Counted from the first letter of the stretch, positions 2,011 to 31,502 are shown. The stretch is DNA of 64,000 nt from a virus (IMGVR_UViG_3300029841_000009:4544-68543); one strand, 5' to 3'. The notes: a model not told the origin generated them from the letters alone. Translations and numbers: made by a program.

Positions 2011-4481
2011 CAGAATCCCCCAACAGTAAGGCGAGGAATAACGGCAAGAACAGACAGCGGCAACGGATCAAGCTGACGGATTTTTACACGTCCGTTTTTG
2101 CCCCAGTTACTGTCCAGTTTCACTTCTACTTTTCCGGTAGCATCATCAACAGGATCATCGTAGAACTCGAATTCACGCTGTGGATATTCGTACCATTTAC
2201 CGCCGGGCGTAGTCGCCCAGATGCCGCGACTGGCATTCACAACCAGAGTAACGGACGGGATCACCTGTTTTTTGTCCAGCAGCGTTTCCTGTCCGTTAAT
2301 GTTGATATCCAGTGTTTCGAATTCAGCAGTTATTGGCAGGCCGATGTGCACTACAGCCCCCGGTGATTCCAGCGTGACGGCACCTCCGGAAACCACTTTC
2401 TGTGGTTCCACGTTCGCATCAGAGAGAATGTTTACGGTCTGGCCTTCAAGATGAGACAGGCCTCCAAATGTCCGGCGCGCCATCTGCCAGTTCGTGGTGG
2501 CCACATTCCTGAGGGATGGCGGGACGTTCCTGTTAGCACGAACCACTACAGCGGTATTGCTGGTTACAGAAATAATGTCGCAACGTAATTCTTTTGACAC
2601 CTCATCGCCAGTATCAGGATCAGTTCCGGTATAAGGGAACTGTAGTTGCGCGCCGACATCACTACTGGTGAAGTACGCACCACCAGAAACACTGATTGTA
2701 TATTCCGCGCGGTAATCCCATTCGCCAGAACCACCAGTGATGATCATCGTTCTGTCAGACGTATTTCTTCCATCATAGCTAAGGCCAGAATCAACAAAGA
2801 AAGCATCTTCATCGCTGGTAAATAAACGGCTGGACAGTCGCTCGATGTATCTCACTGTTTGCCCGTTAACGGTTCGGTTAACGACGAAATACACCGCATC
2901 TTCATTGCCTTCGCTGATACTGCATGTGCTTTCATATTTTCCGGTACTGGATTGTGGTGCCCATGCAAAAACCTGCTGATCACGCAAATAGGTCATCACC
3001 AGTAATTTACCGTCATCACGGATGCAGAAGGCGCTGGAGTAAGGGACTATTGAGAAGCACCAGTCAACAATGCTGTGCTTCTGAAAAAGATGATTGGCAA
3101 GGATAGTAAGGTCGTTCCCCTGATAGCCGTCAACATCGAATGAGTAGGCCAGATCACGGACAACACTGCCTTTCTCCTGGACGAACAGAGCAATATTCGC
3201 CACGGCAATTGGTGGGACATTGCTCGAGCCATTTGATCCCTGAGAGCTGAATGCAAATGATGATGGGGTAAGCACTTTGTTCTGGTCGCCAGTGATGACG
3301 TACTCACCTCCGGAAGTCAGCGCCACCAGCGAACCAACATCAATCAGGTGGCGGATCTCATTAACCTGACGCCCGGCATAGGTGTAGATAATTCTGTCGT
3401 CATCCTGCGTAGGATTGCTTTTGCCAAAATCCTTATAATCCCCGGTACGGCTGGCCCAGATAGTCTGAGGAAACGCAGTCGATGCGGCGAAGTAAAGACG
3501 TTGTTGATAATAAACAACAGTGCCAGGATAACCATTAACACTGTTCCAGGCATATTTAGCCCATTTATAGCTGGCATTATCCTCGCCAACTACCTGCGAA
3601 GGGATATAGGAAATCACCTCGGCAGTTGCAGTAGTTCCATTTGCAGCAGAGATACGGGCAATGCCAAAACCACTGTGCAGATACTCCCACTCAATGCCGG
3701 TATCATCATCACCGGATCCGCCCCAGCCATCCCATGATGTGCCTTCTGTATGCGAAGGGCGCAAAGTGCCTGTTTTGCCTACTGTAACGGCGCGATAGTA
3801 GTTACTGTCTGCACGGCGAATATCGCCAATTGACGTACTCTTACTGGTTTCCCATACCGGCACAGAATCCACTGCAGGCTGTTCCAGATAGAACAATTTG
3901 CCTACCTGCTCCGCGCCAAAAATAGAGGCGCTTGCCGTTAACGTAATTGTCCCGGTGCTGGCGCTGGCATAAACCGTCACTGACTCGTCAATATTGATAT
4001 CTTCAAATGGTCCGTTCTTCGTTACCACATCAACCAGTTGCCAGTTGTCATGCGCATAGCGACGCAACTCTTTCGGCGGGTATGCCGGATGAACAAGCGT
4101 AAGCACGTCGGCGCTTTGCGTGAATTTAATTCGGAACAGATCGGCTTCAGTATATGGCGTGGCAATTTCATAAATAACATTGCTGCTGTTCAGCACCAAC
4201 GCACCATCTTTGATAACGCGCATGTACTGGTGTCCGAACTCCAGAGCATAGGTCTGAACCGTCGAGAACTGGAACGGGATCAGGCGGCATTTCCGATTTG
4301 GGTATTTGGCGGCACCGACAAAACGCGTACCTGGTCGATTCTCAACGCCGCCATACTGCCGCACGATAAAGTTATCGCACTTGCGCAATGCCACCTGGTA
4401 CTTCGCCATGTCAATACGCCCGTACAACGACGGTCCAATCTCACCACCGGCAAAGCTGGGCTGGATCCAACTGATAGCCAT
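2010..4481 (-). CDS. Tail tubular protein B-like (T7 gp12-like)
   Basis: 823 aa; N-terminus MAISWIQPSFAGGEIGPSLYGR resembles the gp12 N-terminal pattern; follows the tubular A gene. Confidence 0.55.
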   Translation of the reverse strand: MAISWIQPSFAGGEIGPSLYGRIDMAKYQVALRKCDNFIVRQYGGVENRPGTRFVGAAKYPNRKCRLIPFQFSTVQTYALEFGHQYMRVIKDGALVLNSSNVIYEIATPYTEADLFRIKFTQSADVLTLVHPAYPPKELRRYAHDNWQLVDVVTKNGPFEDINIDESVTVYASASTGTITLTASASIFGAEQVGKLFYLEQPAVDSVPVWETSKSTSIGDIRRADSNYYRAVTVGKTGTLRPSHTEGTSWDGWGGSGDDDTGIEWEYLHSGFGIARISAANGTTATAEVISYIPSQVVGEDNASYKWAKYAWNSVNGYPGTVVYYQQRLYFAASTAFPQTIWASRTGDYKDFGKSNPTQDDDRIIYTYAGRQVNEIRHLIDVGSLVALTSGGEYVITGDQNKVLTPSSFAFSSQGSNGSSNVPPIAVANIALFVQEKGSVVRDLAYSFDVDGYQGNDLTILANHLFQKHSIVDWCFSIVPYSSAFCIRDDGKLLVMTYLRDQQVFAWAPQSSTGKYESTCSISEGNEDAVYFVVNRTVNGQTVRYIERLSSRLFTSDEDAFFVDSGLSYDGRNTSDRTMIITGGSGEWDYRAEYTISVSGGAYFTSSDVGAQLQFPYTGTDPDTGDEVSKELRCDIISVTSNTAVVVRANRNVPPSLRNVATTNWQMARRTFGGLSHLEGQTVNILSDANVEPQKVVSGGAVTLESPGAVVHIGLPITAEFETLDININGQETLLDKKQVIPSVTLVVNASRGIWATTPGGKWYEYPQREFEFYDDPVDDATGKVEVKLDSNWGKNGRVKIRQLDPLPLSVLAVIPRLTVGGF

Positions 4482-5086
4482 CAGGACAACCTCGCAATGG
4501 TAAACTCGTCAACCGGTGGCTGTGGTTCCTGTGATTCATTCTGGCTATGCGAGCCAGCACTAAGAATCACGCGATTGTACATATTGAGAGCAAATGTACC
4601 GAGATCCGCATTCCCAGTCAGCGCCATGTTAATGGCTGCCGCAAGACGCCAGGCCAGCGCCTCCATAAAAATGGCATCAAACATGTTTACATCTGAAACG
4701 CGAGAGACATACTTGAGCCATGCCTGCGGCTGGTCTGTGTAGATCAATTTTCCTGTTCCGTTGGTGTCTGCACCAACTTCGTACTGAACGCGCATTGCTG
4801 CTGTTGGATTGCGTACACCAGGAAGCATAATTTCAGTAATGCGCAGACAATCTGACGGGTACTGGTACGCATATTCCCAGTCAGGCGGTGGATTGCTCGT
4901 ATCTGCAAGCGCCACGCGTTTGGTAGCAAAGTTCCAGTCAAAATCAGAAAGCACAGCATCACGGCAGGCCTCAAAGTGCAGCGAACATTCCCCCGCTTCC
5001 TTGCTGGCTTCCGTCAGGCTGTTAATGCTGCGGCTGTTGCCAATATTGGACAGCGCACGATTGCAGATCTCTACTACAGAGGCCAT
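4481..5086 (-). CDS. Tail tubular protein A-like / head-tail adaptor (T7 gp11-like)
   Basis: 201 aa; N-terminal pattern ...ALSNIG...W.F resembles gp11-type adaptors; size and order fit. Confidence 0.55.
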   Translation of the reverse strand: MASVVEICNRALSNIGNSRSINSLTEASKEAGECSLHFEACRDAVLSDFDWNFATKRVALADTSNPPPDWEYAYQYPSDCLRITEIMLPGVRNPTAAMRVQYEVGADTNGTGKLIYTDQPQAWLKYVSRVSDVNMFDAIFMEALAWRLAAAINMALTGNADLGTFALNMYNRVILSAGSHSQNESQEPQPPVDEFTIARLS

Positions 5087-5142
5087 AAGTTTCTATACTC
5101 CTGCAATAAAGGGGCCGAAGCCCCTTGTCTGATTCGCGAGGC

Positions 5143-5487
5143 TTACACGCCCAGTTCTTTACGCTTATCTGCGATCTTCTCGCGTAGCGTTTCGGCTTTG
5201 GCGTTATGGTGTGGCTTCTCGTTAAAGAGCAATTCGTACTCTTCACGGAGCTTATCCAGTTCACCATCATCTGACACATCGTTGATGATTTTGGTGCTGG
5301 TTGCTGCCATTGACACCTTTCCTGCAACTTTTGCTTTTGCCTGTCTGGCTGCATCGTTAACAGGTTCCAGTGCGCTACCAGGCTCACCTTCGTATTCGAT
5401 TTCTGCCCCCTCCGGCCACAGAGTGTTATGGATATGAGAGAGGCGCAGAACGCGGTATCTTGGTTTCTCACCTGACATCGATATCAC
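5143..5487 (-). CDS. Hypothetical protein in virion module
   Basis: 114-aa ORF between capsid-associated genes and tubular A; charged C-terminus. Confidence 0.35.
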   Translation of the reverse strand: MISMSGEKPRYRVLRLSHIHNTLWPEGAEIEYEGEPGSALEPVNDAARQAKAKVAGKVSMAATSTKIINDVSDDGELDKLREEYELLFNEKPHHNAKAETLREKIADKRKELGV

Positions 5488-5488
5488 C

Positions 5489-5926
5489 TTAACCAGTTAC
5501 TTTTGAGCGGATCGGGTACGGCGTATTGGCATCAACATCCAGACTGATACCCGCAGTGAATTTGCCAGCCGTTAGTGGGCCAGTTGCGACGGAGTAGTTA
5601 ACACGCAGATATCGCTGAACACCGGCAGGCACCTTTGCAGAAACAACTCGTTTACCTGCTGTCAGGGCGGTCTTTGCCAGTGCGCCACTATCATAAATAG
5701 TGGTCCATGAGCTGTTATTCTCACTCGTCTGCAACTGGATGTTTACAGTTGCATCACCGCTTGCCGCGGCGGCTGCGTTAACCAGCGCCCAAAACTCAAG
5801 CGGGTAACCCACGCCGATATCACGACGTTTTCCGTCAATTGGACCGAGATCGATTACGTCAGTAGAAGCCGCGGTATTCGTAACCGCCTGAGCTTCGGAG
5901 AACATCAACAGTTTGTCGGTGATCAT
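5489..5926 (-). CDS. Hypothetical capsid-associated protein (possible decoration / minor capsid)
   Basis: 145-aa Ala/Thr/Gly-rich ORF immediately downstream of the major capsid gene. Confidence 0.35.
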   Translation of the reverse strand: MITDKLLMFSEAQAVTNTAASTDVIDLGPIDGKRRDIGVGYPLEFWALVNAAAAASGDATVNIQLQTSENNSSWTTIYDSGALAKTALTAGKRVVSAKVPAGVQRYLRVNYSVATGPLTAGKFTAGISLDVDANTPYPIRSKVTG

Positions 5927-5977
5927 CTTCTTTCTCCATTAGTGGGTCTGTTACGACCCACAGGTTAATAACAGGCG

Positions 5978-6970
5978 TTACACCACGCGGGCTTCTGTTT
6001 CCAGAAGCGCATCAGTTTCACGGATTGGTACACCACGGAATGAAGTCCACCACTCGCCTTCAGTCTCTTTTACGCTGATAGCCAGAGATGTTTTCTCCAG
6101 AGATTGCAGATCAAGAGCCTGGCCTACAGTGCGGTTCATGTAGAACACCGGGCGGCCCATGCCACGGTTTGGAATGCGATGTAGTGCTTTAACCATCAAC
6201 TTCGCAATATTTGCGGCAGAGGATGGTTCTGAAATATTGCTGACATCGATGTTTGCAATGCGAACAACATAACGCCAGTCACGCAGAGCAAGTCCGTTAT
6301 CCCATTTGTAATGGGTGCGATAGCCTTCGTACTTGCCGCCATTAGCATCTTCCAGTGTCACCTGGCCTTTATCTTCCATCTGGATGCCAGCCTTCTGCCC
6401 TTTCGGGAAGATGCCATGCACGGTGTTTTCGCCCCACACCACTAACCAGATTGAGGTGTTATCTGTACCCGTGCCACCAGCATCAATGATGTTCTGAGCA
6501 TTACCCGCAGACAGGCTGGAATAGCGGGAGGACAGTCCCATAAACTGCTGAGGGTTAACGCTGGAATCACCATAAAACAGCGTCTGCGCCATCTGCTGAT
6601 TCATCGCTTCAATAAATGCGCGGTCTTCAGACAGGCGGAATTCGGCGGTATTGCCGTTCAGATCAGCCAGTGACTTATCGACTTCCGCATAGGTTTCCAG
6701 CATGCCAACGGAATCGGTTACCTGCACTGTGGTTGATTTGCTTGGCTGTACGCCATAGTTCAGCAAACGCCAGGTAGCTGAAGGTAAACCAGAACGAATG
6801 GTGGTTCGGTGTCCGGTAGGAAGGTTCCCTTCGACAAAAGGCATATCCTGAAGGATCGGGTTAGTTTGACCGAGAAGCTCGATAATCTTATCGACTTTCC
6901 CGTTTGGATCGACGCGCTTACCCCAGTCAGCCAGCGTTAGCGCAGTTAAGCCTTTAACAGCCATTGTCAT
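5978..6970 (-). CDS. Major capsid protein
   Basis: 330 aa, between scaffold and tail genes; size and position of T7 gp10-like capsid protein. Confidence 0.65.
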   Translation of the reverse strand: MTMAVKGLTALTLADWGKRVDPNGKVDKIIELLGQTNPILQDMPFVEGNLPTGHRTTIRSGLPSATWRLLNYGVQPSKSTTVQVTDSVGMLETYAEVDKSLADLNGNTAEFRLSEDRAFIEAMNQQMAQTLFYGDSSVNPQQFMGLSSRYSSLSAGNAQNIIDAGGTGTDNTSIWLVVWGENTVHGIFPKGQKAGIQMEDKGQVTLEDANGGKYEGYRTHYKWDNGLALRDWRYVVRIANIDVSNISEPSSAANIAKLMVKALHRIPNRGMGRPVFYMNRTVGQALDLQSLEKTSLAISVKETEGEWWTSFRGVPIRETDALLETEARVV

Positions 6971-6978
6971 TTCCTCTC

Positions 6979-7680
6979 TTATTTGCCATAGAGCACTTCG
7001 GCCGCACTACGCTGGCCTTCATTACCACCGGTGACCATGCCATCTTCAGACATCGCCTTTCCGATTTTCACGAACGTTTTGACCAGATCAGGGTGATTAC
7101 CCAGCCCGGTGGTGTTCAGATATTCTTTGAGTTCAGGTGTCCCGAACTGGTCAAGCGCACGCTGTGCGGCGCTAAGGTTAGAAATCAACTTGTCGCCACC
7201 GATTTCTTTGTCGGCTTTTACATCCGCTGCCCACTGCTCGGTTGTTTTCTGCCAGGCTTCTGCCTGGCGCTGCTGAACACCTGCCAGAATCTTCGGATAA
7301 GCATCAACCAGCTTTTGCGCTTGCTCGTTGGTCAGGTTTAGTTCTCGCGCCACCGGCTCGAATTCCTTCAACGCTTCTGTATCCAGCTCTACGCCTTCGG
7401 CAGCCTGAAACTCGTACTTTTCAGGCGCACCCTCTGGTTTATCGCCGTCCTTTTTTTCATCCTGCTTATCGTTTTCAGGCTTTTTGTCATCAGCAGGTTT
7501 ATCGCCATCAGCAACAGGTTGTGGCTTATCACCTTCCTGTTGTGATGGATCACCAACTGGAGCAGGGTTATCACCTGCAGGCGCTGACGGTTCTGACGCA
7601 GCCGGAGCTGCTCCACCATCGACTGGTTGCTCATTGCAAAGACGGCGATACAGCAAACGCTCAAATAAATTCATGATCAC
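6979..7680 (-). CDS. Scaffolding protein
   Basis: 233 aa, highly acidic with a Pro/Ala/Asp/Lys-rich low-complexity N-terminus and helical C-terminus; lies between portal and capsid. Confidence 0.6.
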   Translation of the reverse strand: MIMNLFERLLYRRLCNEQPVDGGAAPAASEPSAPAGDNPAPVGDPSQQEGDKPQPVADGDKPADDKKPENDKQDEKKDGDKPEGAPEKYEFQAAEGVELDTEALKEFEPVARELNLTNEQAQKLVDAYPKILAGVQQRQAEAWQKTTEQWAADVKADKEIGGDKLISNLSAAQRALDQFGTPELKEYLNTTGLGNHPDLVKTFVKIGKAMSEDGMVTGGNEGQRSAAEVLYGK

Positions 7681-7973
7681 TCCTGTTCACTGGCCTCTTT
7701 GGCCATCTTCAAATACTGTTCAGGGCAATGCGCCATAACGCGCTGAAACAGTTCCAGCGCCAGATTGCGTTGCCCCTCATTAAATGCCATTGCCATAGCG
7801 TCCATCGGTGAGATAGCGGAAAACACACGGCCTTTCTCCAGCACCGACCAGACAACGCGACGCCCCTGTTCACTGCTCATGACAAAGCGAATGTCATCAA
7901 TTTCACGCTGTGCCATGTCACGTTGCTTACGGGCGTTTTCTTCTTTCAGTTGATCATCTTCGTAATCTGTCAT
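7677..7973 (-). CDS. Hypothetical small protein
   Basis: 98-aa ORF between portal and scaffold, overlapping both. Confidence 0.35.
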   Translation of the reverse strand: MTDYEDDQLKEENARKQRDMAQREIDDIRFVMSSEQGRRVVWSVLEKGRVFSAISPMDAMAMAFNEGQRNLALELFQRVMAHCPEQYLKMAKEASEQE

Positions 7974-9649
7974 TGTGATTGCCCACCCTGACCACTAACT
8001 GCATTCGCCATAGCTGACAAAACACTCGGATCCGAAGTTTTAGCTTCGCTTAGCGTCTTGGCACCCTGTGCCGCCGCCATCCCCATCGCCATCATTTGTT
8101 GCTGCTGTTGTTGCTGTGCCCGTTGCTGGCGAGCCTGCTCAACCTGTTCCTGCGGAACAATGACGGTTGGAGACACTCCGGACATATCAGCGAATGCATC
8201 GATCGCCTGATCAACGTTGAGTTTGTCGAGAGCTTCTGGTTTCGCTTGCGCAAGTTGACCAATGAAGTTAACCGTGGACGCCAGACTGGACAGGCCGATA
8301 GACTTCTGCGCCTGAGCCATGACGGAAATGTATTCGACCTTCAGGGGCATACCTTCCATCACGTCTGGCGGTGGCGGCAGCATGTTTTTACGCACCATCA
8401 TCGAGAAAGAGCGGTCAATGAGAGGATTAAGACATTCGTCGTTCAGACGCTCCAGAACCGGCCCCAACATCAGAAGTTTTTCTTCTTTCATTTCGATCAC
8501 CGCTTCAACAGGCATCGAGCGGGTATTGATGTTCTGCAACATCATGAACAGATCGACAAAGTAGGCGCTGTTAATGATTTGACGAGTGTCCTGAATGTCT
8601 GCCACCAAATCTGCTGTACTGGGGTTAACCAGATAAGCAGGCCTGAAACCATCCTGACCAGTAATCTGATCGATATACGTGATGTCGCCAGGAAGAAGGG
8701 AGGCACGCTGATTCTTGAGGGAAGTCGGAGCAACCATCGGCGGATTGGTGGCTTTATCAATCAACTGCGACTTGCGCTTCTGGAGAAGCTGCAATGCCTT
8801 AACAGGTCCAAGCGCCAGCATACCCGGGCATGATGATCCATAAACATCTTCGCCGTTAACTTCCCAGCGCGGGGCCATAATTGGAAACTCATCGAATCCG
8901 GACTCACGCAACAACTTGTCGTTATCGCCACCAACCTCGTAATAAACCGATTTGAATGGCTTGTTCTTGCTATCCAGCTTCGATGTATCGCGGTCAATGT
9001 TCGGGTAAACCGAATGCATCACTTCAATCCACTTCTCGTAGGTTCCGCTTTCCCACATGCTTTTTACGGATTCGCTGACGTTATTTAGCCCGAACTCCTG
9101 AACAAGCTGACGAACAGTCATAGAGAACTTGCGAAAACAGGTGTCCACACTGCCACGAGGTGAGTTAGCCAGGTAGTAACTGCCTATCGGGAATGGCATT
9201 GTGCGAATGATGTCCTCGTCATCCTCCAGCACTGCCATTGCACCAGTGCTGTATGTGCCGAGGCTTCCGTATAACTGCGGCAGCGACTGATAGAGATTCG
9301 ACTTATTGAACATATCGTTCATGCGGTTCTGCACCGCCTCAAGCCACAACTTAACAGGGCCATAATCCATCATTTCAGGATCTGGCGTAGCCAGGCGAAA
9401 CCACGGACGCGCGGGGCTTGTGATGCCTGACATCATGCCGCTGGCGAGAGTGCGCGCCGCCATAGTCCCGGTCGAATCAATAATGCGTGTATTGCGTCGA
9501 TCGTTACGGTTGACCTCAGAAGTCAGAAAGCGGGAACCACGCGGGTTGATGTAATCACTCAACTCGCGCCAGTGCGGCTCGAACGACTGACGCTCGCTTT
9601 CAAGTTGTGCGAACTGTTTGTTCAATCGCTCTTTAGTTGTTTCCGCCAT
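7970..9649 (-). CDS. Portal / head-to-tail connector (T7 gp8-like)
   Basis: 559 aa; C-terminus QQQQQQMMAMGMAAAQGAKTLSEAKTSDPSVLSAMANAV resembles the Gln/Ala/Met-rich C-terminus of T7-type connectors. Confidence 0.75.
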   Translation of the reverse strand: MAETTKERLNKQFAQLESERQSFEPHWRELSDYINPRGSRFLTSEVNRNDRRNTRIIDSTGTMAARTLASGMMSGITSPARPWFRLATPDPEMMDYGPVKLWLEAVQNRMNDMFNKSNLYQSLPQLYGSLGTYSTGAMAVLEDDEDIIRTMPFPIGSYYLANSPRGSVDTCFRKFSMTVRQLVQEFGLNNVSESVKSMWESGTYEKWIEVMHSVYPNIDRDTSKLDSKNKPFKSVYYEVGGDNDKLLRESGFDEFPIMAPRWEVNGEDVYGSSCPGMLALGPVKALQLLQKRKSQLIDKATNPPMVAPTSLKNQRASLLPGDITYIDQITGQDGFRPAYLVNPSTADLVADIQDTRQIINSAYFVDLFMMLQNINTRSMPVEAVIEMKEEKLLMLGPVLERLNDECLNPLIDRSFSMMVRKNMLPPPPDVMEGMPLKVEYISVMAQAQKSIGLSSLASTVNFIGQLAQAKPEALDKLNVDQAIDAFADMSGVSPTVIVPQEQVEQARQQRAQQQQQQQMMAMGMAAAQGAKTLSEAKTSDPSVLSAMANAVSGQGGQSQ

Positions 9650-15137: not shown

Positions 15138-15764
15138 TCACTGGTTGCCTCCTTTGCGAAGCTGTTCCGCCCATTCTTCAAGGGATTTCTCCGCATATTC
15201 ACCGGACAGGCCATCAATCGGATGCGCTTCATTAACCAACTCTTCTTTCGCTGACAAAATCATGCGTGTAACGTCGAAAACTTCACGCAAAGACTTATTG
15301 ATAAATCCGTGATTGAACGCAGCAGCAAGACGGCTGGCGGTATAGTTAATCCCCTCGTTGCGTGCTTCCGCACGAATTTCAGCCAGAAAAGCATCGGTAG
15401 CTGGAGTTTCGCTGTGGTGTAGGGCATCATTGATAATCATTGCAGCAACACCAGCCTGCCCTGCATCCGTGACCGACACATGCTCAAGAGTTACGGCCAT
15501 TGCGTGTTTCAGTCCGTCGTTCTCCACCACCAGCGCAGCGAGATTAGTCTCATACTCCGCAATTCGGCACATAGCATCGATATTTGTGTCCTCCAGCCGC
15601 TTAATTTCATCCAGTAGCGCCAGCACAACCTGCGGTGTGACCTTCATACGAAACGCGAGCAATTTTTGCGGCGTTGCCACGACTTTTATTGCTTCTGCTG
15701 CCTCACGCAGTGCCTGGTAATTAATTTCGCTCACTGGTTGCCTCCTGAATACGCTTAAACTCAA
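15138..15764 (-). CDS. Ead/Ea22-like protein (paralog)
   Basis: Contains SEINYQALREAAEA; its 3' ~250 bp is near-identical to 63750-64000. Confidence 0.5.
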   Translation of the reverse strand: MSLSVFRRQPVSEINYQALREAAEAIKVVATPQKLLAFRMKVTPQVVLALLDEIKRLEDTNIDAMCRIAEYETNLAALVVENDGLKHAMAVTLEHVSVTDAGQAGVAAMIINDALHHSETPATDAFLAEIRAEARNEGINYTASRLAAAFNHGFINKSLREVFDVTRMILSAKEELVNEAHPIDGLSGEYAEKSLEEWAEQLRKGGNQ

Positions 15765-24256: not shown

Positions 24257-24448
24257 ATGACAAACCTACCCCATGACTATTACGTCAACCTCGTAAAGAT
24301 CCTTCTCAAGAAAGCCTCATACGCCGATAAATTCCGCCTGGCTGAAATCATCGAGCGCGAAGCTATGCGCATCGCCAGCAACGATAACGCTGTTTCTGTC
24401 GCAAAAATCTCCCTCGTAACCAAAGTAGTTATGGGAGGTGCAAAATGA
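24257..24448 (+). CDS. Small protein translationally coupled to the antirepressor (Icd-like position)
   Basis: 63-aa ORF; its stop overlaps the ant ATG (ATGA). Confidence 0.4.
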   Translation: MTNLPHDYYVNLVKILLKKASYADKFRLAEIIEREAMRIASNDNAVSVAKISLVTKVVMGGAK

Positions 24449-25626
24449 AAACGCTTCCGACCGTTAACACCCTACAGCCTATCCTGCATAACCAGCTCCC
24501 CGTTATCACTACTGAACTACTGGCGCAATTGTATGGAACCGAGCGCCAACGTCTGACAAACAATTTCAATAGAAACAAGGAACGTTTTATAGAAGGTAAA
24601 CACTTTTTTAGGATAGAAGGTAAAGAGTTACGAGAGTTGAAGAACAAAAACTCTTTAAGAGTTCCTGTGAGAGTAGTTAACGAACCATCTTTAAGAGGGT
24701 TACAAATTCCCCCGAAAGTTCGCTCCCTCATCCTCTGGACAGAACGCGGGGCTGCACGTCACGCCAAAATGCTTGAAACTAACCAAGCGTGGGATGTGTT
24801 CGAACGGCTGGAAGACAGCTACTTCAACCAGAACGCACAAACGGCCGCGACCGTAACCGTCTCACCAAACAATGCTCGTGAGGTTGTCGATACGCTCAAC
24901 GCCAAACCAATGTATTACGTTAAGGTGTGCAACAACGAGCCACTCACAACCTCAGCCGATGTTGCCCAAGCATTCAGCACCACAAACAATTCCATCGTTA
25001 TGGCCATCGATGCGTTACGCATTCCTCGCACGGCTGCGGCGCGTCACTTCTTTAAAGAACAACGACCGCTGGAAGGAAGCGACCGCGAAATAACAATCTA
25101 TCGCATGACAAAAGACGGATTTACCTTGCTCATGGAAAGTATCGACGGTCCAGGCGTGAAGGATATCAAGCTGGCCTACATTGAAGCCTTTAACGCTATC
25201 AGCAGCGTGTTAAAGGCAGAATACGAGCGAATGCTATACAACCGACTGTATCAGGAAACAAAGATTATCCGAACGGCAACAGAACATCATCGGCTATTAA
25301 CGGAACCAAACTACCGCAAGACACTAATCAAAGAGTTTGACAAGGCGACGGAGAAAACTAAAGCGGCACTAAATCTACCAACAATGACTAAAGATGATGT
25401 GATATCAGCCTTACTTCTTGATCTGCTCAGAAACGCCAGAGCACTTATCAGTTTTGACGAAAACCTGAATCCTCAGCTCAAGCTACTACCACCGACAGGC
25501 AAAGTAGTCGACCAAGCAGATCACAACAGCATACTCAGCGTACTGGATGCAAACCTGCCAGCCAGGACACTACAGGAGCTGATAAAAATATCTGCGGATA
25601 AACTGGCCGCAGGTGCAAAACCATAA
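24445..25626 (+). CDS. Antirepressor (ORF6N-like N-domain + Rha-like domain)
   Basis: N-terminal LYGTERQRLTNNFNRNKERFIEGKHFFRIEGKELRELKN; central ITIYRMTKDGFTLLMESIDGPGVKDIKLAYIEAFN (Rha-type). Confidence 0.75.
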   Translation: MKTLPTVNTLQPILHNQLPVITTELLAQLYGTERQRLTNNFNRNKERFIEGKHFFRIEGKELRELKNKNSLRVPVRVVNEPSLRGLQIPPKVRSLILWTERGAARHAKMLETNQAWDVFERLEDSYFNQNAQTAATVTVSPNNAREVVDTLNAKPMYYVKVCNNEPLTTSADVAQAFSTTNNSIVMAIDALRIPRTAAARHFFKEQRPLEGSDREITIYRMTKDGFTLLMESIDGPGVKDIKLAYIEAFNAISSVLKAEYERMLYNRLYQETKIIRTATEHHRLLTEPNYRKTLIKEFDKATEKTKAALNLPTMTKDDVISALLLDLLRNARALISFDENLNPQLKLLPPTGKVVDQADHNSILSVLDANLPARTLQELIKISADKLAAGAKP

Positions 25627-25630
25627 AACA

Positions 25631-25650
25631 AAGCGCCCGATTTGGGCGCT
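25631..25650. terminator. Bidirectional terminator hairpin between convergent genes
   Basis: AGCGCCC-gatt-GGGCGCT with A/T runs on both sides. Confidence 0.5.
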
Positions 25651-25660
25651 TCTTCAATTC

Positions 25661-26296
25661 TTAATATTTCGGTGTAATCAGTAGCGATACATGCCCTGAT
25701 TTGTCACGAGAAACGTAATACTCGCCTCTCTTAGTCTTGAACTCAGCTTTCTGCATATCTGATTTAACAATCTGCTCTAACTGCGCAATCACGGTGTCTC
25801 TTTCACTTGACGCATCCAAGACTTCAACTGCTACGGCCATAGAAAGCAAGGAATCAGAGTTAGGCTTGGATACTCGCCATAATAACTCAGAAATCTTCCC
25901 ATCCTTATCAACTCTAGCCCGACCGTTAACAGATGAGTTGATGGCAAATTCAACGGTGTTATTACCTTGTTTAACAGACTTAATTCTTATAGTGGAGGTG
26001 GCTTTTCCTGATGTAACGATGCCTTCAAGGTCATCATTATATAACTGCTTAAACTTATCTACGGTCACACCATCAAAAGCAGCTCCGGTAGTAGCCGCAG
26101 TGTTGGAGTCTTCTGGGATCAAGGTCACAGCCGCAAGAGTATTAACAACTACAAAAGTAGCAATCCCGAGAAAGCCACTCACTAAAACAGCTTTGAACTT
26201 ACCACCAGAAGACGAGGCACATTGTTTCCGATATGCGCCACGAACTACGAAGAAACACAAAATCAGGCTAATAATAAACGCCACCAGCATCCCCAT
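25661..26296 (-). CDS. Membrane-anchored hypothetical protein
   Basis: 211 aa with two predicted N-terminal TM helices and a Ser/Thr/Asn-rich soluble domain. Confidence 0.45.
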   Translation of the reverse strand: MGMLVAFIISLILCFFVVRGAYRKQCASSSGGKFKAVLVSGFLGIATFVVVNTLAAVTLIPEDSNTAATTGAAFDGVTVDKFKQLYNDDLEGIVTSGKATSTIRIKSVKQGNNTVEFAINSSVNGRARVDKDGKISELLWRVSKPNSDSLLSMAVAVEVLDASSERDTVIAQLEQIVKSDMQKAEFKTKRGEYYVSRDKSGHVSLLITPKY

Positions 26297-26862
26297 AGAA
26301 ATCTCCTTTTAGATATAAGGGTAAAGCAATATCGTATTAGATCTTCCTTAAGACACAACCCCCCCTCCCCCCATACAGGGTGCCCTTTACCGGAGTTCCG
26401 GCCCCTTCTCAAAAGCATCAAAAAAAGCTCGAGATCGAGTACCGGAACTCATGCCACCAGATAGCTCCACATCGTTTCCAATGCTTCGCCGCCGTGTGCG
26501 CCCTGTGGCCCACAATCATGCCATTGGTCGTCTGATATACCTTCTTCTGCTCATTGAGCACAGGCGAGTTGTCGCACTCCTGCCTTTCTCAGACTCGACT
26601 TAGTTTAGATCGCTGTTCCTGGCTTGCGTCAGCACACTTTCCCCTTGTACGCATACCCGCGCGCCACTTCGCCCAAAAACACCGAACCCAACGAAGTAGC
26701 AAAGACAACGACGCGAGCGTGAGTCTGAAACGTGCACCAGTAAAAAAGGGGTTGCAGGCGCAAAAAGATTTGATTATCTTTAGACGCAAGAAAGCCGCCC
26801 CAATCAAGAGGTGTCTTTTTAAATCCAGCCTACCAAGCAAGATTTAAATTTCAGACTGAAAA

Positions 26863-26890
26863 CCGCCCGGCAAGGCGGTTTTTGTCTTTC
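26863..26890 (+). terminator. Rho-independent terminator closing a 600-bp noncoding island
   Basis: AACCGCC-cggcaa-GGCGGTT followed by TTTTTGTCTTT. Confidence 0.5.
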
Positions 26891-26931
26891 TGGCGCTTAC
26901 ATTACACCACCAGAAAACGATCCGTAAAGGA

Positions 26932-27204
26932 TCATTTGATCCCTTGTTCCAATTCTGCCGACACTTTAACCTTTTCCCATACAAGGGTTTGCAGCCTTAA
27001 CAGAATCGCATCTTTATCAAGGTGTGAAAGATCCTTAACCATATCGTCAAACGACAGAACGCGAATGGCCATCTCAATGACCCTCGGCGGCTCCCCCTTC
27101 TCATATCGCTTATATGTAGCCAACGATATCCCAAACTCTTCGGCTGCTCGCTCCTGCGTCCAGTTCATCCCACGACGCCATAATTTCAATTCGTAACCCG
27201 TCAT
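26932..27204 (-). CDS. HTH-XRE family transcriptional regulator
   Basis: ELKLWRRGMNWTQERAAEEFGISLATYKRYEKGE: Cro/C1-type HTH. Confidence 0.6.
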   Translation of the reverse strand: MTGYELKLWRRGMNWTQERAAEEFGISLATYKRYEKGEPPRVIEMAIRVLSFDDMVKDLSHLDKDAILLRLQTLVWEKVKVSAELEQGIK

Positions 27205-27305
27205 TACATCCTCTACCTTTCCCTAGATATTCAATAAATTAGACATAGCCACTCACGACAAAATAAGATGTATTAACAATCCAATCTTTAGGCTTTAGGT
27301 AAAAA

Positions 27306-27731
27306 ATGAGTTCATCTGCTTTTGTCACCGTGGTCACTGGTGTAAGTGTTTTTGTTCTAGGCCAACTCATCGTCAAAGGAGCTATTGAGCCTTACATTTC
27401 ATTCAGGGAACAACTAGGGAAAATATCCAATCTGTTATTATGTAACCAAGCAAAAATAGTGAATCCTAGCTCGAACTTAAAGCCAGAAATCATTCATGAT
27501 CTAAAAGATTCCGCAGCACAGTTAATGGCAAAATATTCCACTTTACCTTTCTATATCAAAAAGTTACATATCGGCTTTCGTCTTGTTCCATCAGCCACCG
27601 AGATTCTTGGGGCAGCTCGAAATTTGAACTATATAGCGTCAATACATGAAGGTAAGACTGGGGAGAATCCATCTAAGCATCTCGAAGAGATTGGCCATAT
27701 GCTCAAAATACCAACTACCTATTCAAGCTAA
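27306..27731 (+). CDS. Hypothetical protein with N-terminal TM helix (AT-rich gene)
   Basis: 141 aa; AFVTVVTGVSVFVLGQLIV TM segment; divergent from the HTH gene; visibly lower GC than its neighbours. Confidence 0.45.
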   Translation: MSSSAFVTVVTGVSVFVLGQLIVKGAIEPYISFREQLGKISNLLLCNQAKIVNPSSNLKPEIIHDLKDSAAQLMAKYSTLPFYIKKLHIGFRLVPSATEILGAARNLNYIASIHEGKTGENPSKHLEEIGHMLKIPTTYSS

Positions 27732-27833
27732 CCCAATGTAAGTTATCGGCTTGCCCCACAATAAGTTATCTATCTTCAAACGCCCCTATATTAACACTCG
27801 CAAAGTGTCAAAATGACACTTTGCGCATTGTGT

Positions 27834-28214
27834 TTACTTAACGAGGAATAAAAATGGTTTATCGTTCGGCGGTGTACTCGGGGCTGGCTCGCTTTTGCTC
27901 ATACGATCAGTGTACCAGGCCAGCTCCTTGTCAAAGTAAGCCTGATTAAAATAGGCCATGAATGTGGTTTCAAATCCATAACGACCGCTAATACGCAGCA
28001 TCTGATTGCCGTTCTCTGTTTCCAGATATACCTGGGCACGTTCCTGATTCTCCTTCAGCCAAGTTAAAGCCTCGTCGCACGAGGACACACGATACTCATC
28101 ATCGTAGCCGTCATCGATGCGGCTTGAAGAAGAACGGCAAATCACGCCAACAGAACCAGCCAGGATAGTTTGAATTTTAAGGAAAGCGTTTTTGCGGATT
28201 TTAATCATGCTCAT
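27834..28214 (-). CDS. Hypothetical protein driven by cassette copy 2
   Basis: 126-aa ORF directly downstream of the conserved promoter-leader cassette. Confidence 0.45.
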   Translation of the reverse strand: MSMIKIRKNAFLKIQTILAGSVGVICRSSSSRIDDGYDDEYRVSSCDEALTWLKENQERAQVYLETENGNQMLRISGRYGFETTFMAYFNQAYFDKELAWYTDRMSKSEPAPSTPPNDKPFLFLVK

Positions 28215-28333
28215 CGGGTTATCTCCGGTTTAACCAGGGCGGGTATCGCTCGGTTTCGGGTATAACCATAGGAAATTTTTTCCCACCTGTAAAGCACTTT
28301 TATATAAATCTATAATTATATAATTCTATGAGC
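28215..28333 (-). promoter_or_regulatory. Conserved promoter-leader cassette, copy 2
   Basis: Near-identical to 58794-58911; -35 TTTACA, 17 bp, -10 TATGGT, leader, GGAG SD, ATG. Confidence 0.5.
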
Positions 28334-28376: not shown

Positions 28377-28676
28377 TCAGATGTTAAACGCTATTCGTTT
28401 TCCTGTGGGAAGCTCAACATCCAGGCTTAATTTGCCTCCCATAGCTTCAACGTAACGCTTTAATGTCGCCAGCTTTAAATCATTTCCGCGCTGCTCCAGC
28501 TTTGTTACTGCTGGCTGGCTTATACCCATCGCCTCAGCAACCTGCTTTTGTGATAACTGGAGTTCTTCACGCATCATCTGCAAGCCGACCTCAAGAATCA
28601 TCTCATCTGCCATTTCTTTAATTCGCGCCTGGCTTTCCGGTAAACGGCTGGCAATCACCTCATCTAATGTTCTCAT
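28377..28676 (-). CDS. higA: HigA-like antitoxin (HTH-XRE)
   Basis: 99 aa with HTH (LSQKQVAEAMGISQPAVTKLEQ); immediately downstream of and overlapping the toxin gene. Confidence 0.65.
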   Translation of the reverse strand: MRTLDEVIASRLPESQARIKEMADEMILEVGLQMMREELQLSQKQVAEAMGISQPAVTKLEQRGNDLKLATLKRYVEAMGGKLSLDVELPTGKRIAFNI

Positions 28677-29029
28677 TACTTGCTCTCCAGTGTGTTCAGA
28701 TGTGCTGCAAACTCATCCTCAGCTATACGCACCAGTTTTTTATAAAACCGCTTATCGTTACTTTTGTCTCCTGCACAAAGAACGATAGCCCGGCGAATCG
28801 GATCGAACGCATAAAAGGCTCTTATCGGACGGCCAGAAAACTGAACGCGAAGCTCTTTCATATTTTTGTACCGAGAACCTTTTACGGTATCGGCATATGG
28901 CCTGGGTAACTCAGGTCCGTAAACCTGTAGCTTTTTCAAATCAGCCAAAACCTTTTCCTGAAGAGCGTCTTCTTGCTCATTTAGCCAGCCGTCAAATCGC
29001 TGGCTAAAAAGTACCGTCCACATGCTCAA
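28676..29029 (-). CDS. higB: HigB-like toxin (RelE/ParE superfamily)
   Basis: 117 aa; toxin-first order; resembles the HigB / Gp49-like killer family. Confidence 0.65.
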   Translation of the reverse strand: MSMWTVLFSQRFDGWLNEQEDALQEKVLADLKKLQVYGPELPRPYADTVKGSRYKNMKELRVQFSGRPIRAFYAFDPIRRAIVLCAGDKSNDKRFYKKLVRIAEDEFAAHLNTLESK

Positions 29030-30485: not shown

Positions 30486-31334
30486 TTAATGTTGGAGTGA
30501 TTTCCAGGTCTTTCTTAACCTGTTATAACGCTGCTCAACGAGGGATCGTAAATATGCAAGGTCAGCACCAGGATACATGCCATCAGCAAATTCCTGACTA
30601 ACCTCTCTGGTGATTTGATGACGAAGTTCGGCCTCTCCCTTTTCCCGAACAAGACGCGCAGCTCTCTCCGCTGCTTTCTGTTTTGCCTTTATCTCTCTGG
30701 CCGTCTTCCTCTGACGCCATACATTCTCCATCTGCTCCTGAATAACAATACGCTTATAATCAGCCTCCGTTATCGCTTTTTTAAGCCGTTCGCTATTCTT
30801 CGCATTGAAGTAATTAAGTTTCTGGCTAACCGCACGTCTCCATGCTTGTTCAGTAATACCAACGGTTTCCAGCAGTTGATCACGAATCTCTATTTTCGCT
30901 GGCCAATACTGTTTATTCACCCGATCCCAGCGACGTTCATAATCAATAAAACCTAACGCTTTCAGTTGCGACAACGCCCTTGTACAGCGCGTTATAGACT
31001 TGTTCCCAGCTTCGGATACGGTAGACAGGCCGCAAAAATCAGCCAACGCCTCAGCACTAGCCAGAACCCGCTTAGAAATGATGTTTACATGGTGCAAAAT
31101 CGCAGCGATCACAGCATTAATCGCCCGACGACGATGCTCGTTTATCCGGCGCTTCCGCTCTGACGGTTGATTAACGTAGAACGCAACCTCACACGTAAGA
31201 TCACGCCCATTAATGCGCTGTAAAGCATCAGATAACACCAGCGGCAGCTTGTGCGTATGGTGCTTTGGAGGCTGGAACTCCGGCGACAAATTACAAACGT
31301 AAGCTGAACGTAGAGACGGCATTGGTCTATCCAT
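30486..31334 (-). CDS. repA: IncFII-type replication initiator RepA (ORF extends to 31466 but likely starts at MDRPMPSL)
   Basis: Segment KSITRCTRALSQLKALGFIDYE and basic C-terminus resemble IncFII RepA1; the upstream in-frame extension overlaps an antisense promoter/terminator. Confidence 0.75.
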   Translation of the reverse strand: MDRPMPSLRSAYVCNLSPEFQPPKHHTHKLPLVLSDALQRINGRDLTCEVAFYVNQPSERKRRINEHRRRAINAVIAAILHHVNIISKRVLASAEALADFCGLSTVSEAGNKSITRCTRALSQLKALGFIDYERRWDRVNKQYWPAKIEIRDQLLETVGITEQAWRRAVSQKLNYFNAKNSERLKKAITEADYKRIVIQEQMENVWRQRKTAREIKAKQKAAERAARLVREKGEAELRHQITREVSQEFADGMYPGADLAYLRSLVEQRYNRLRKTWKSLQH

Positions 31335-31378
31335 ATGTTCGCTCTTGCGTCCACGGAAAACCAACGTATAATGGGAGT

Positions 31379-31460
31379 TGTCGAGGCGCCCATGGATTGT
31401 TGTTGTTGGTTTTCCGTGGATGTCGCAAGAAGCCCGCAGATTTATCTGCGGGCTTTTTGT
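31379..31460 (+). ncRNA. CopA-like antisense RNA candidate opposite the repA leader
   Basis: Plus-strand promoter TTGCGT-16 bp-TATAAT (31345-31372), stem-loop, and terminator GCCCGCAG-attta-TCTGCGGGC-TTTTT (31430-31458). Confidence 0.35.
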
Positions 31461-31502
31461 TTCCATATCTGGTCACTTTCCAACCAGACACCCACAATCA
31501 TA

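Follow-up and report, generated by a model that had tools for sequence, protein, structure and literature searches.

The DNA analysed here (the window, 64 kb in full length) contains two divergent genes, one encoding a 90-aa protein with an XRE-type helix-turn-helix (HTH) domain and the other a 141-aa protein with an N-terminal transmembrane (TM) helix. An earlier note had read the two as a candidate exclusion or defence module, and the question raised by this locus is whether they belong together at all and, if they do not, what the TM protein brings to the element that carries it. Both open reading frames were recovered with exactly the boundaries first given, and they lie, as had been said, between an antirepressor gene and a HigBA-type pair. 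The features of the region are the following (strand is given where assigned):

24445-25626, Rha/ORF6N antirepressor gene
26857-26884, GC-rich hairpin 3' of the HTH gene, found by a terminator-like scan, 11-bp stem, sequence common to the relatives
26932-27204, minus strand, XRE-type HTH gene, 90 aa, matching Pfam HTH_3 and phrog_6962, part of the backbone and outside the insert
27214-27787, plus strand, 574-bp insert, a single-gene cassette or moron, standing where the backbone without insert has 8 bp (CTCGCACA)
27240-27269, plus strand, promoter-like element TAGACA-N18-TAAGAT, found by a consensus scan, 36 bp upstream of the start codon
27306-27731, plus strand, 141-aa gene, phrog_7512, predicted N-terminal TM helix (about residues 4-24) followed by a four-helix bundle
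27799-27825, perfect palindrome CGCAAAGTGTCA-AAA-TGACACTTTGCG, 12-bp stem and 3-nt loop, part of the backbone
27834-28214, minus strand, 126-aa gene, phrog_8090 (unannotated), backbone ORF call, present in uninserted relatives
28377-29029, Gp49(HigB)/HTH pair
30486-31466, IncFII-type RepA gene

The window runs once around a circle of about 48.6 kb and on into a second turn: its last 60 nt recur at position 15345, and about 15.4 kb is present twice. The region around the 141-aa gene matched 62 plasmids, with 98-99% identity in 59 of them and 80-90% in the other three. These plasmids are non-mobilizable, measure about 46-52 kb and come from E. coli, E. albertii, E. fergusonii, Klebsiella, and Salmonella, the plasmid of strain ATCC 25922 being one of them. 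The same region is matched by three deposited 49-kb Yersinia phages (vB_YpM_39, vB_YpM_41, and vB_YpM_44), on which a literature search returned no papers. With matches to both plasmids and phages, the element in the window is an E. coli phage-plasmid of 48.6 kb. A greedy ORF call gave 13 ORFs on its plus strand vs 79 on its minus strand, in agreement with the earlier remark that plus-strand genes are few.

The boundaries of the insert were obtained by base-by-base prefix and suffix comparison with the ATCC 25922 plasmid and phage vB_YpM_39. In these uninserted relatives, the HTH gene and the 126-aa gene are separated by 64 bp and the 141-aa gene is absent; in the window, the insert begins beyond the ribosome-binding site of the HTH gene and stops short of the backbone palindrome. 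The insert is carried by 12 of the 62 related plasmids, while the remaining 50 and the three phages lack it and match the region in two pieces. Its GC content is 0.383, as against 0.462, which places it in the lowest 9.6% of 574-bp windows. The 141-aa ORF itself has a GC content of 0.392 and a GC3 of 0.35, compared with 0.47 and 0.53 for the HTH gene and 0.46 and 0.51 for the 126-aa gene, and the higher AT content noted before is therefore real but moderate.

The promoter-like element matches the consensus at only 9 of 12 positions. Upstream regions were aligned from six unrelated contexts, namely the window, a P1-like and a Serratia element, an IncF plasmid of E. coli, and one plasmid each from Salmonella and Citrobacter; in this alignment the two hexamers show little or no variation, and the sequence beyond them on the upstream side is unrelated. 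The insert would thereby bring its own putative promoter, which travels with the gene, while the palindrome downstream belongs to the backbone. Together with the sharply bounded presence/absence polymorphism, the atypical composition, and the homologs in accessory slots of mobile elements described below, this conserved element bears out the suggestion that the gene is horizontally acquired cargo, a moron. We regard the 141-aa gene as very probably a mobile single-gene cassette that is unpaired with the HTH gene; it would have entered the backbone together with a putative promoter of its own, separating the 126-aa gene from the HTH gene.

The alternative, in which the HTH and TM proteins form a two-gene repressor/effector module that was acquired and acts together, draws on the divergent arrangement of the genes around a 101-bp AT-rich spacer and on the XRE-type HTH domain, which is typical of such regulators. 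The assignment of that domain is secure: the 90-aa protein matches Pfam HTH_3 with 29.8 bits against a gathering score of 23 (E = 6e-7, residues 6-40). The distribution of the genes, however, speaks against a module. All 62 related plasmids and the three Yersinia phages have the HTH gene, whereas the TM gene is found in 12 plasmids; the insertion boundary has the TM gene on one side and the HTH gene with its ribosome-binding site on the other; and the HTH protein is the same at all 90 positions in an insert-bearing plasmid and at 88 of them in relatives without the insert. Furthermore, none of the other contexts examined has an HTH gene accompanying the family gene, and among all fetched loci homologs of the HTH and 126-aa proteins are confined to this phage-plasmid family. 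A co-inherited unit thus appears largely refuted, and the module reading as a whole is highly improbable. A type II toxin-antitoxin (TA) pair with the HTH protein as antitoxin and the 141-aa protein as toxin was rejected as well, as the HTH gene occurs without the 141-aa gene in 50 plasmids and the antitoxin families scored below their cutoffs; the matches of the 90-aa protein to MqsA, HipB, and RstR profiles all lay far below them. For annotation in general, this means that a divergent HTH gene and an uncharacterised gene should be called a regulatory pair only after their co-inheritance has been checked.

Removing the insert restores what appears to be a continuous minus-strand backbone block, consisting of higB-higA, the 126-aa gene, the HTH gene, and the hairpin at 26857-26884, which was later split by the 141-aa insert. 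The hairpin is likely the terminator closing this operon. The palindrome at 27799-27825 has no T-run. In the window, the converging 141-aa and 126-aa genes have it between them; in relatives without the insert it comes immediately upstream of the HTH gene, between that gene and the 126-aa gene, and it could be an operator of the HTH protein rather than a terminator.

The 141-aa protein has a single hydrophobic segment, with a Kyte-Doolittle 19-residue maximum of 2.23 at residues 5-23, in line with the TM helix already proposed for it. As in the earlier note, no domain could be recognised: there were no matches in Pfam, NCBIfam, or PADLOC, and in PHROGs only the unannotated phrog_7512 was found, so that none of the known defence, exclusion, or Abi models in PADLOC, Pfam, NCBIfam, and the annotated PHROGs is matched. 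A Pfam scan of 126 diverse family members gave four single, unrelated chance matches and none that was consistent, and a literature search on the protein accession gave no papers. A family-profile search of the PDB yielded no solved relative; it gave only a repetitive coiled-neck lectin without per-domain significance, which was rejected. AlphaFold, run with an alignment of close relatives, predicted a TM helix and a four-helix bundle (pLDDT 79.9, pTM 0.74), with helices at residues 4-46 (through the membrane segment), 60-78, 97-114, and 123-133; residues 1-20, which include most of the TM segment, have a pLDDT below 50.

No charged residue precedes the TM helix (the N-terminus reads MSSS), and three basic ones, K24, R34, and K39, come after it. 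By the positive-inside rule, a single-pass protein with N-out/C-in topology and a cytoplasmic bundle is expected. Conservation within the family peaks in the TM helix and at its juxtamembrane end, with 2.56 bits per column compared with 0.7-2.1 elsewhere in a 126-sequence alignment. The top conserved columns include T8, G12, V13, F16, G19, Q20, K24, E28, and P29, and five positions are kept in at least 90% of the 126 sequences. This conservation goes beyond that of a passive anchor, from which we infer that the conserved Gly/Gln face of the helix mediates self-association or binding to a specific membrane partner, namely a host inner-membrane protein.

A word-indexed search returned 36 close relatives, all from Enterobacterales and all annotated as hypothetical. 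An exhaustive phmmer search extended the family to 281 clusters (at 50% identity) at E<=1e-3, 33 of them at E<=1e-10, nearly all with lengths of 135-155 aa. The family is conserved in length and sequence down to about 25-30% identity, and is both large and undescribed. These data weigh heavily against a further reading, that the ORF has no function and is carried along as part of a mobile DNA segment. That reading has the missing domain match in its favour, and is scarcely credible in view of the conservation over 281 clusters and the confident fold prediction.

Most carriers are plasmids. A tblastn search found the family gene on 347 PLSDB plasmids, of which 321 are from Escherichia and 264 are predicted to be conjugative. 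They include IncX4 and IncF plasmids such as pETN48, in which the gene lies beside sitABCD. Among 50,697 phage records, the P1-like phage D6 alone carries a family gene. In D6 and in seven P1-like contigs from IMG/VR, the gene lies between humD and phd-doc, and the humD-doc span is 1,657 bp in D6 vs 1,064 bp in P1, P7, SJ46, RCS47, and others that lack the gene. D6 therefore has an insertion of about 593 bp, again of cassette size and made independently in another phage-plasmid lineage. We also observed that it replaces the -35 region of Pphd and keeps the -10 region and operator (L034 3816-4480 in D6, compared with L039 691-762 in P1; L numbers denote fetched loci). The regulation of the phd-doc addiction module may therefore differ in D6-like elements.

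Other members are found in a range of accessory regions. On Salmonella conjugative plasmids, the family gene adjoins Phd/ParE, and two of these plasmids also encode AbiD (PADLOC, E=5e-59) in the adjacent array unit. In a Serratia element of 84 kb, it lies near genes for RdgC, a Dam-type methylase, and ParE. A P2-like prophage of Chromohalobacter carries it between the sheath/tube and tail-fibre genes, adjoining a gene for a HEPN protein, at a position that we take to be the Z/fun slot of P2. In a further P2-like prophage, it lies just past gpA and adjoins an EcoRII-C/methylase pair; the gpA-gpQ locus of P2-like prophages is the old/tin defence hotspot (PMC9122126). The members in P2-like prophages are distant ones, at about 36-38% identity. 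Further contexts are a primase-bearing island, a locus in which a DUF433 gene overlaps the start of the family gene, a T4SS operon of an integrative and conjugative element (ICE) and, for one distant member, an ordinary-looking chromosomal region. TA genes recur as neighbours (Phd/ParE and Phd/Doc), and in the window HigBA is one gene away. No partner gene common to all contexts was found among the fetched loci, and the family gene is thus a single-gene unit; neighbouring genes for proteins of 84, 107, 159, and 500 aa were considered as obligatory partners and rejected, as each is missing from the window and from some of the contexts.

In conjugative plasmids, the family gene is flanked by direct repeats of 26-29 nt about 519 bp apart. 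The full repeat is about 48 bp long and consists of a 26-bp core, CTGGACGTTCAGGTNATTCTGTCCAG, and, ahead of it, a partly conserved arm of about 22 nt (...TTAATYCCCGC...), into which the conserved C-terminal codons and stop codon of the family gene run. In 11 non-redundant loci, 43 copies were found on one strand and none on the other, with 3-8 copies per locus; mononucleotide shuffling of one locus, L020, gave a mean of 0.02 copies. The repeats separate units of 0-2 genes, irrespective of gene strand. Copies were located as follows:

L004: 7940, 8458, 8986, and 9437
L020: 8 copies, 4086-9030
L038 (IncX4, CP051780): 21082, 21645, 22166, and 25345
L040 (pKpQIL): 2865, 3103, and 3504, beside its integrase gene
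L041 (Y. pestis pMT1): 3499
L042 (IncX1): 2023, 2474, and 3501

The complete IncX4 plasmid has exactly four copies (position weight matrix score of at least 14 bits), which bound one unit each for a 159-aa TM protein, the family gene, and a 500-aa protein, and a gene for a 271-aa tyrosine recombinase of the ResD family follows 265 bp after the last copy. Three Salmonella plasmids share about 100% identity from the core at 7940 through two units to the core at 8986-9011, and within a few bases outside this stretch their similarity drops to random. Mosaic junctions between the plasmids hence fall on the sites. A PLSDB search with a 32-mer from the site gave at least 1,366 plasmids, among them pKpQIL, pMT1, and IncX1 plasmids; the hits are intergenic with few exceptions. 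Seven arrangements (L004, L005/L006, L007, IncX4, pKpQIL, pMT1, and IncX1) have a gene for a tyrosine or small serine recombinase within about 1 kb of the last site. None adjoining the array was identified in L008 (the nearest is about 2.7 kb away), L009-L013/pETN48, or L020, and the type of recombinase varies, with no single type constant. Exchange at these sites may be either site-specific or due to short-homology recombination at a repeated regulatory element. No intact copy of the repeat is present in the window, in D6, or in the P2-like loci; what is left in the window is a degenerate trace of it immediately upstream of the -35 hexamer, at about 27226-27245.

The other units of these arrays showed some features of their own. 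The 159-aa protein resembles the 141-aa protein in having an N-terminal TM segment and a helical domain, without detectable homology; a distant paralogous relationship was rejected at an hhalign probability of 0.4%. Its gene is annotated as 'peptidase M14' in one record, which looks wrong. The 500-aa protein has no Pfam matches. Units encoding these two proteins were located at L009 5404-5883 and 7068-8570, L038 21132-21611 and 22756-24258, L005 9022-9525, and L042 1458-1967, and they accompany the family gene often, though not always.

Integron gene cassettes and the pdif modules of Acinetobacter are both mobile gene units bounded by sites. The plasmid arrays resemble them in that units of 0-2 genes are bounded by the same short site, with mosaic junctions on the sites. 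Unlike integron cassettes, their site lacks an attC-like structure and no IntI is present; the genes inside face either way, while the sites are all direct. An identification of the site as attC was rejected on this absence of structure and on the flanking recombinases, which are ResD-family tyrosine or small serine enzymes. Neither is it a dif/Xer site, as no dif-like match (at most 5 mismatches, spacer of 6-8) was found in L004, L020, L038, or L040. A third comparison is with rfsF, AGATCCGNAA-N8-TTNCGGATCT, the site at which F-type plasmids undergo replicon fusion with ResD (PMC8299605, PMC9412624). The arrays are similar to the rfsF/ResD system in using a short plasmid site that joins foreign DNA segments and in the ResD-family genes near several of them, but the two sites are unrelated in sequence, and rfsF-like sites, present in L005/L006, L040, and the F plasmid, never coincide with array sites. 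The 18-kb stretch of the F plasmid that was examined has no copy of the new core.

The rfsF-like sites (L005/L006 14624, L040 6623, and L043, the F plasmid, 7923) occur wherever a close homolog of ResD is present (84-89% identical to that of F), apart from the repeat arrays. rfsF is absent from the complete IncX4 plasmid, whose array lies beside a gene for a ResD-family recombinase with 49% identity.

A literature search for the core sequence found no paper containing it and a keyword search gave nothing relevant; as far as we have checked, site-bounded arrays of this kind have not been described. They would explain the precise exchange of small genes between unrelated enterobacterial plasmids, and the 26-bp core offers a sequence tag for mining further cargo genes. 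A cassette system of this kind would have a directly oriented recombination site of about 48 bp, with AbiD, several membrane proteins, and the 141-aa family as its cargo, and would move small accessory genes, along with their promoters, from one enterobacterial plasmid to another. In its most far-reaching form, the proposal holds that the 141-aa gene is a cassette of an undescribed integron-like plasmid system, which occasionally seeds phage-plasmids, and that the family is a new single-gene, membrane-acting anti-phage system. As a whole, this combination is rather unlikely.

As for function, the protein would be expressed from the resident element and help its carrier by opposing incoming competitors at the inner membrane. 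It could do so by superinfection exclusion, in which the entry of DNA is blocked, or by abortive infection, in which the bundle would sense a trigger and the TM helices would oligomerise and depolarise the membrane. We base this anti-phage reading on the gene's own promoter-like element, the conserved TM helix, the positions in exclusion and defence slots, and the TA and Abi neighbours. Prophage morons encoding membrane superinfection-exclusion proteins, such as HK97 gp15 and lactococcal Sie2009, offer a close model: here, too, a single small gene with a promoter of its own (a putative one in our case) lies between backbone genes, encodes a protein with an N-terminal membrane anchor, is present or absent among near-identical relatives, and is presumably expressed from the resident element. 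In contrast to those proteins, the 141-aa protein shows no similarity to exclusion families in Pfam, PHROGs, or PADLOC, its soluble domain is probably a cytoplasmic four-helix bundle, and its family is mainly plasmid-borne. The exclusion genes of the P2 hotspots invite a similar comparison, as family members occupy the old/tin and Z/fun slots beside an EcoRII-type restriction-modification pair and a HEPN protein. Unlike in that case, the window's copy lies in a different element and slot, and no homology was found to P2 old, tin, or the systems tested in PMC9122126 (PADLOC gave no match).

Genomic association with defence genes is weak evidence, however, as the accessory regions of mobile elements hold many genes that have nothing to do with defence. 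Most carriers, moreover, are conjugative plasmids and not phages, and some distant members lie in ordinary-looking chromosomal or ICE transfer-operon contexts. An exclusion or abortive infection role for the 141-aa protein is accordingly put forward as a plausible, though tentative, proposal; the full explanation, an autonomous moron cassette acting against phages at the inner membrane, we would place close to an even chance, leaning slightly towards doubt.

Two other functions were weighed against the anti-phage role. The protein may have a different accessory role at the membrane that serves plasmids, such as blocking incoming conjugative DNA, conferring tolerance to envelope stress, or modulating a host membrane protein. 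The numbers fit such a role, with 347 plasmids against one deposited phage species, as do the member inside an ICE T4SS operon and the commonest context of the family, which is an IncF or IncX4 backbone near other genes for small membrane proteins. It is harder to reconcile with the members in non-conjugative phage-plasmids and P2-like prophage slots, where conjugation functions would be senseless, and there is no similarity to known entry-exclusion proteins; on balance we consider it a possible but somewhat unlikely explanation. A membrane toxin or addiction factor, which would stabilise its carrier by post-segregational killing instead of acting on phages, is suggested by the repeated occurrence beside TA modules and partition genes in maintenance regions, and the small size, membrane location, and conserved TM helix of the protein would suit that task. 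Such a toxin would need to be neutralised, though, and no context contains a cognate antitoxin or conserved partner, nor did an Rfam scan of 26700-28300 detect an antisense RNA or any other credible RNA family. The gene also moved alone into two phage-plasmid lineages, where an unneutralised toxin would be lethal. We therefore consider an addiction role improbable.

Should the anti-phage role hold, a single gene for about 145 aa would make up a very compact system, one that all current defence-finding models miss and that is present on phage-plasmids and on hundreds of IncF and IncX4 plasmids of clinical relevance. It would also offer a simple model for exclusion or abortion by a TM helix and a four-helix bundle.

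Some further variation was seen in the neighbourhood of the insert. A second variable cargo slot lies at 25608-26345 of the window, where a 738-bp segment takes the place of 242 bp with a 62-aa ORF in relatives (L002, L025). Its gene (25661-26296, minus strand) encodes a 211-aa protein with N-terminal hydrophobic segments that belongs to phrog_23465 (unannotated) and of which the other fetched loci contain no homolog. Mosaicism extends to the antirepressor gene: about 200 bp of its ORF6N part (24529-24726) differ from the relatives, and the protein has 393 aa here vs 380 aa in those relatives. In the insert-bearing plasmid p48 of NZ_CP023368 (L001 3007-3723), only a 238-aa Rha-domain gene is annotated.
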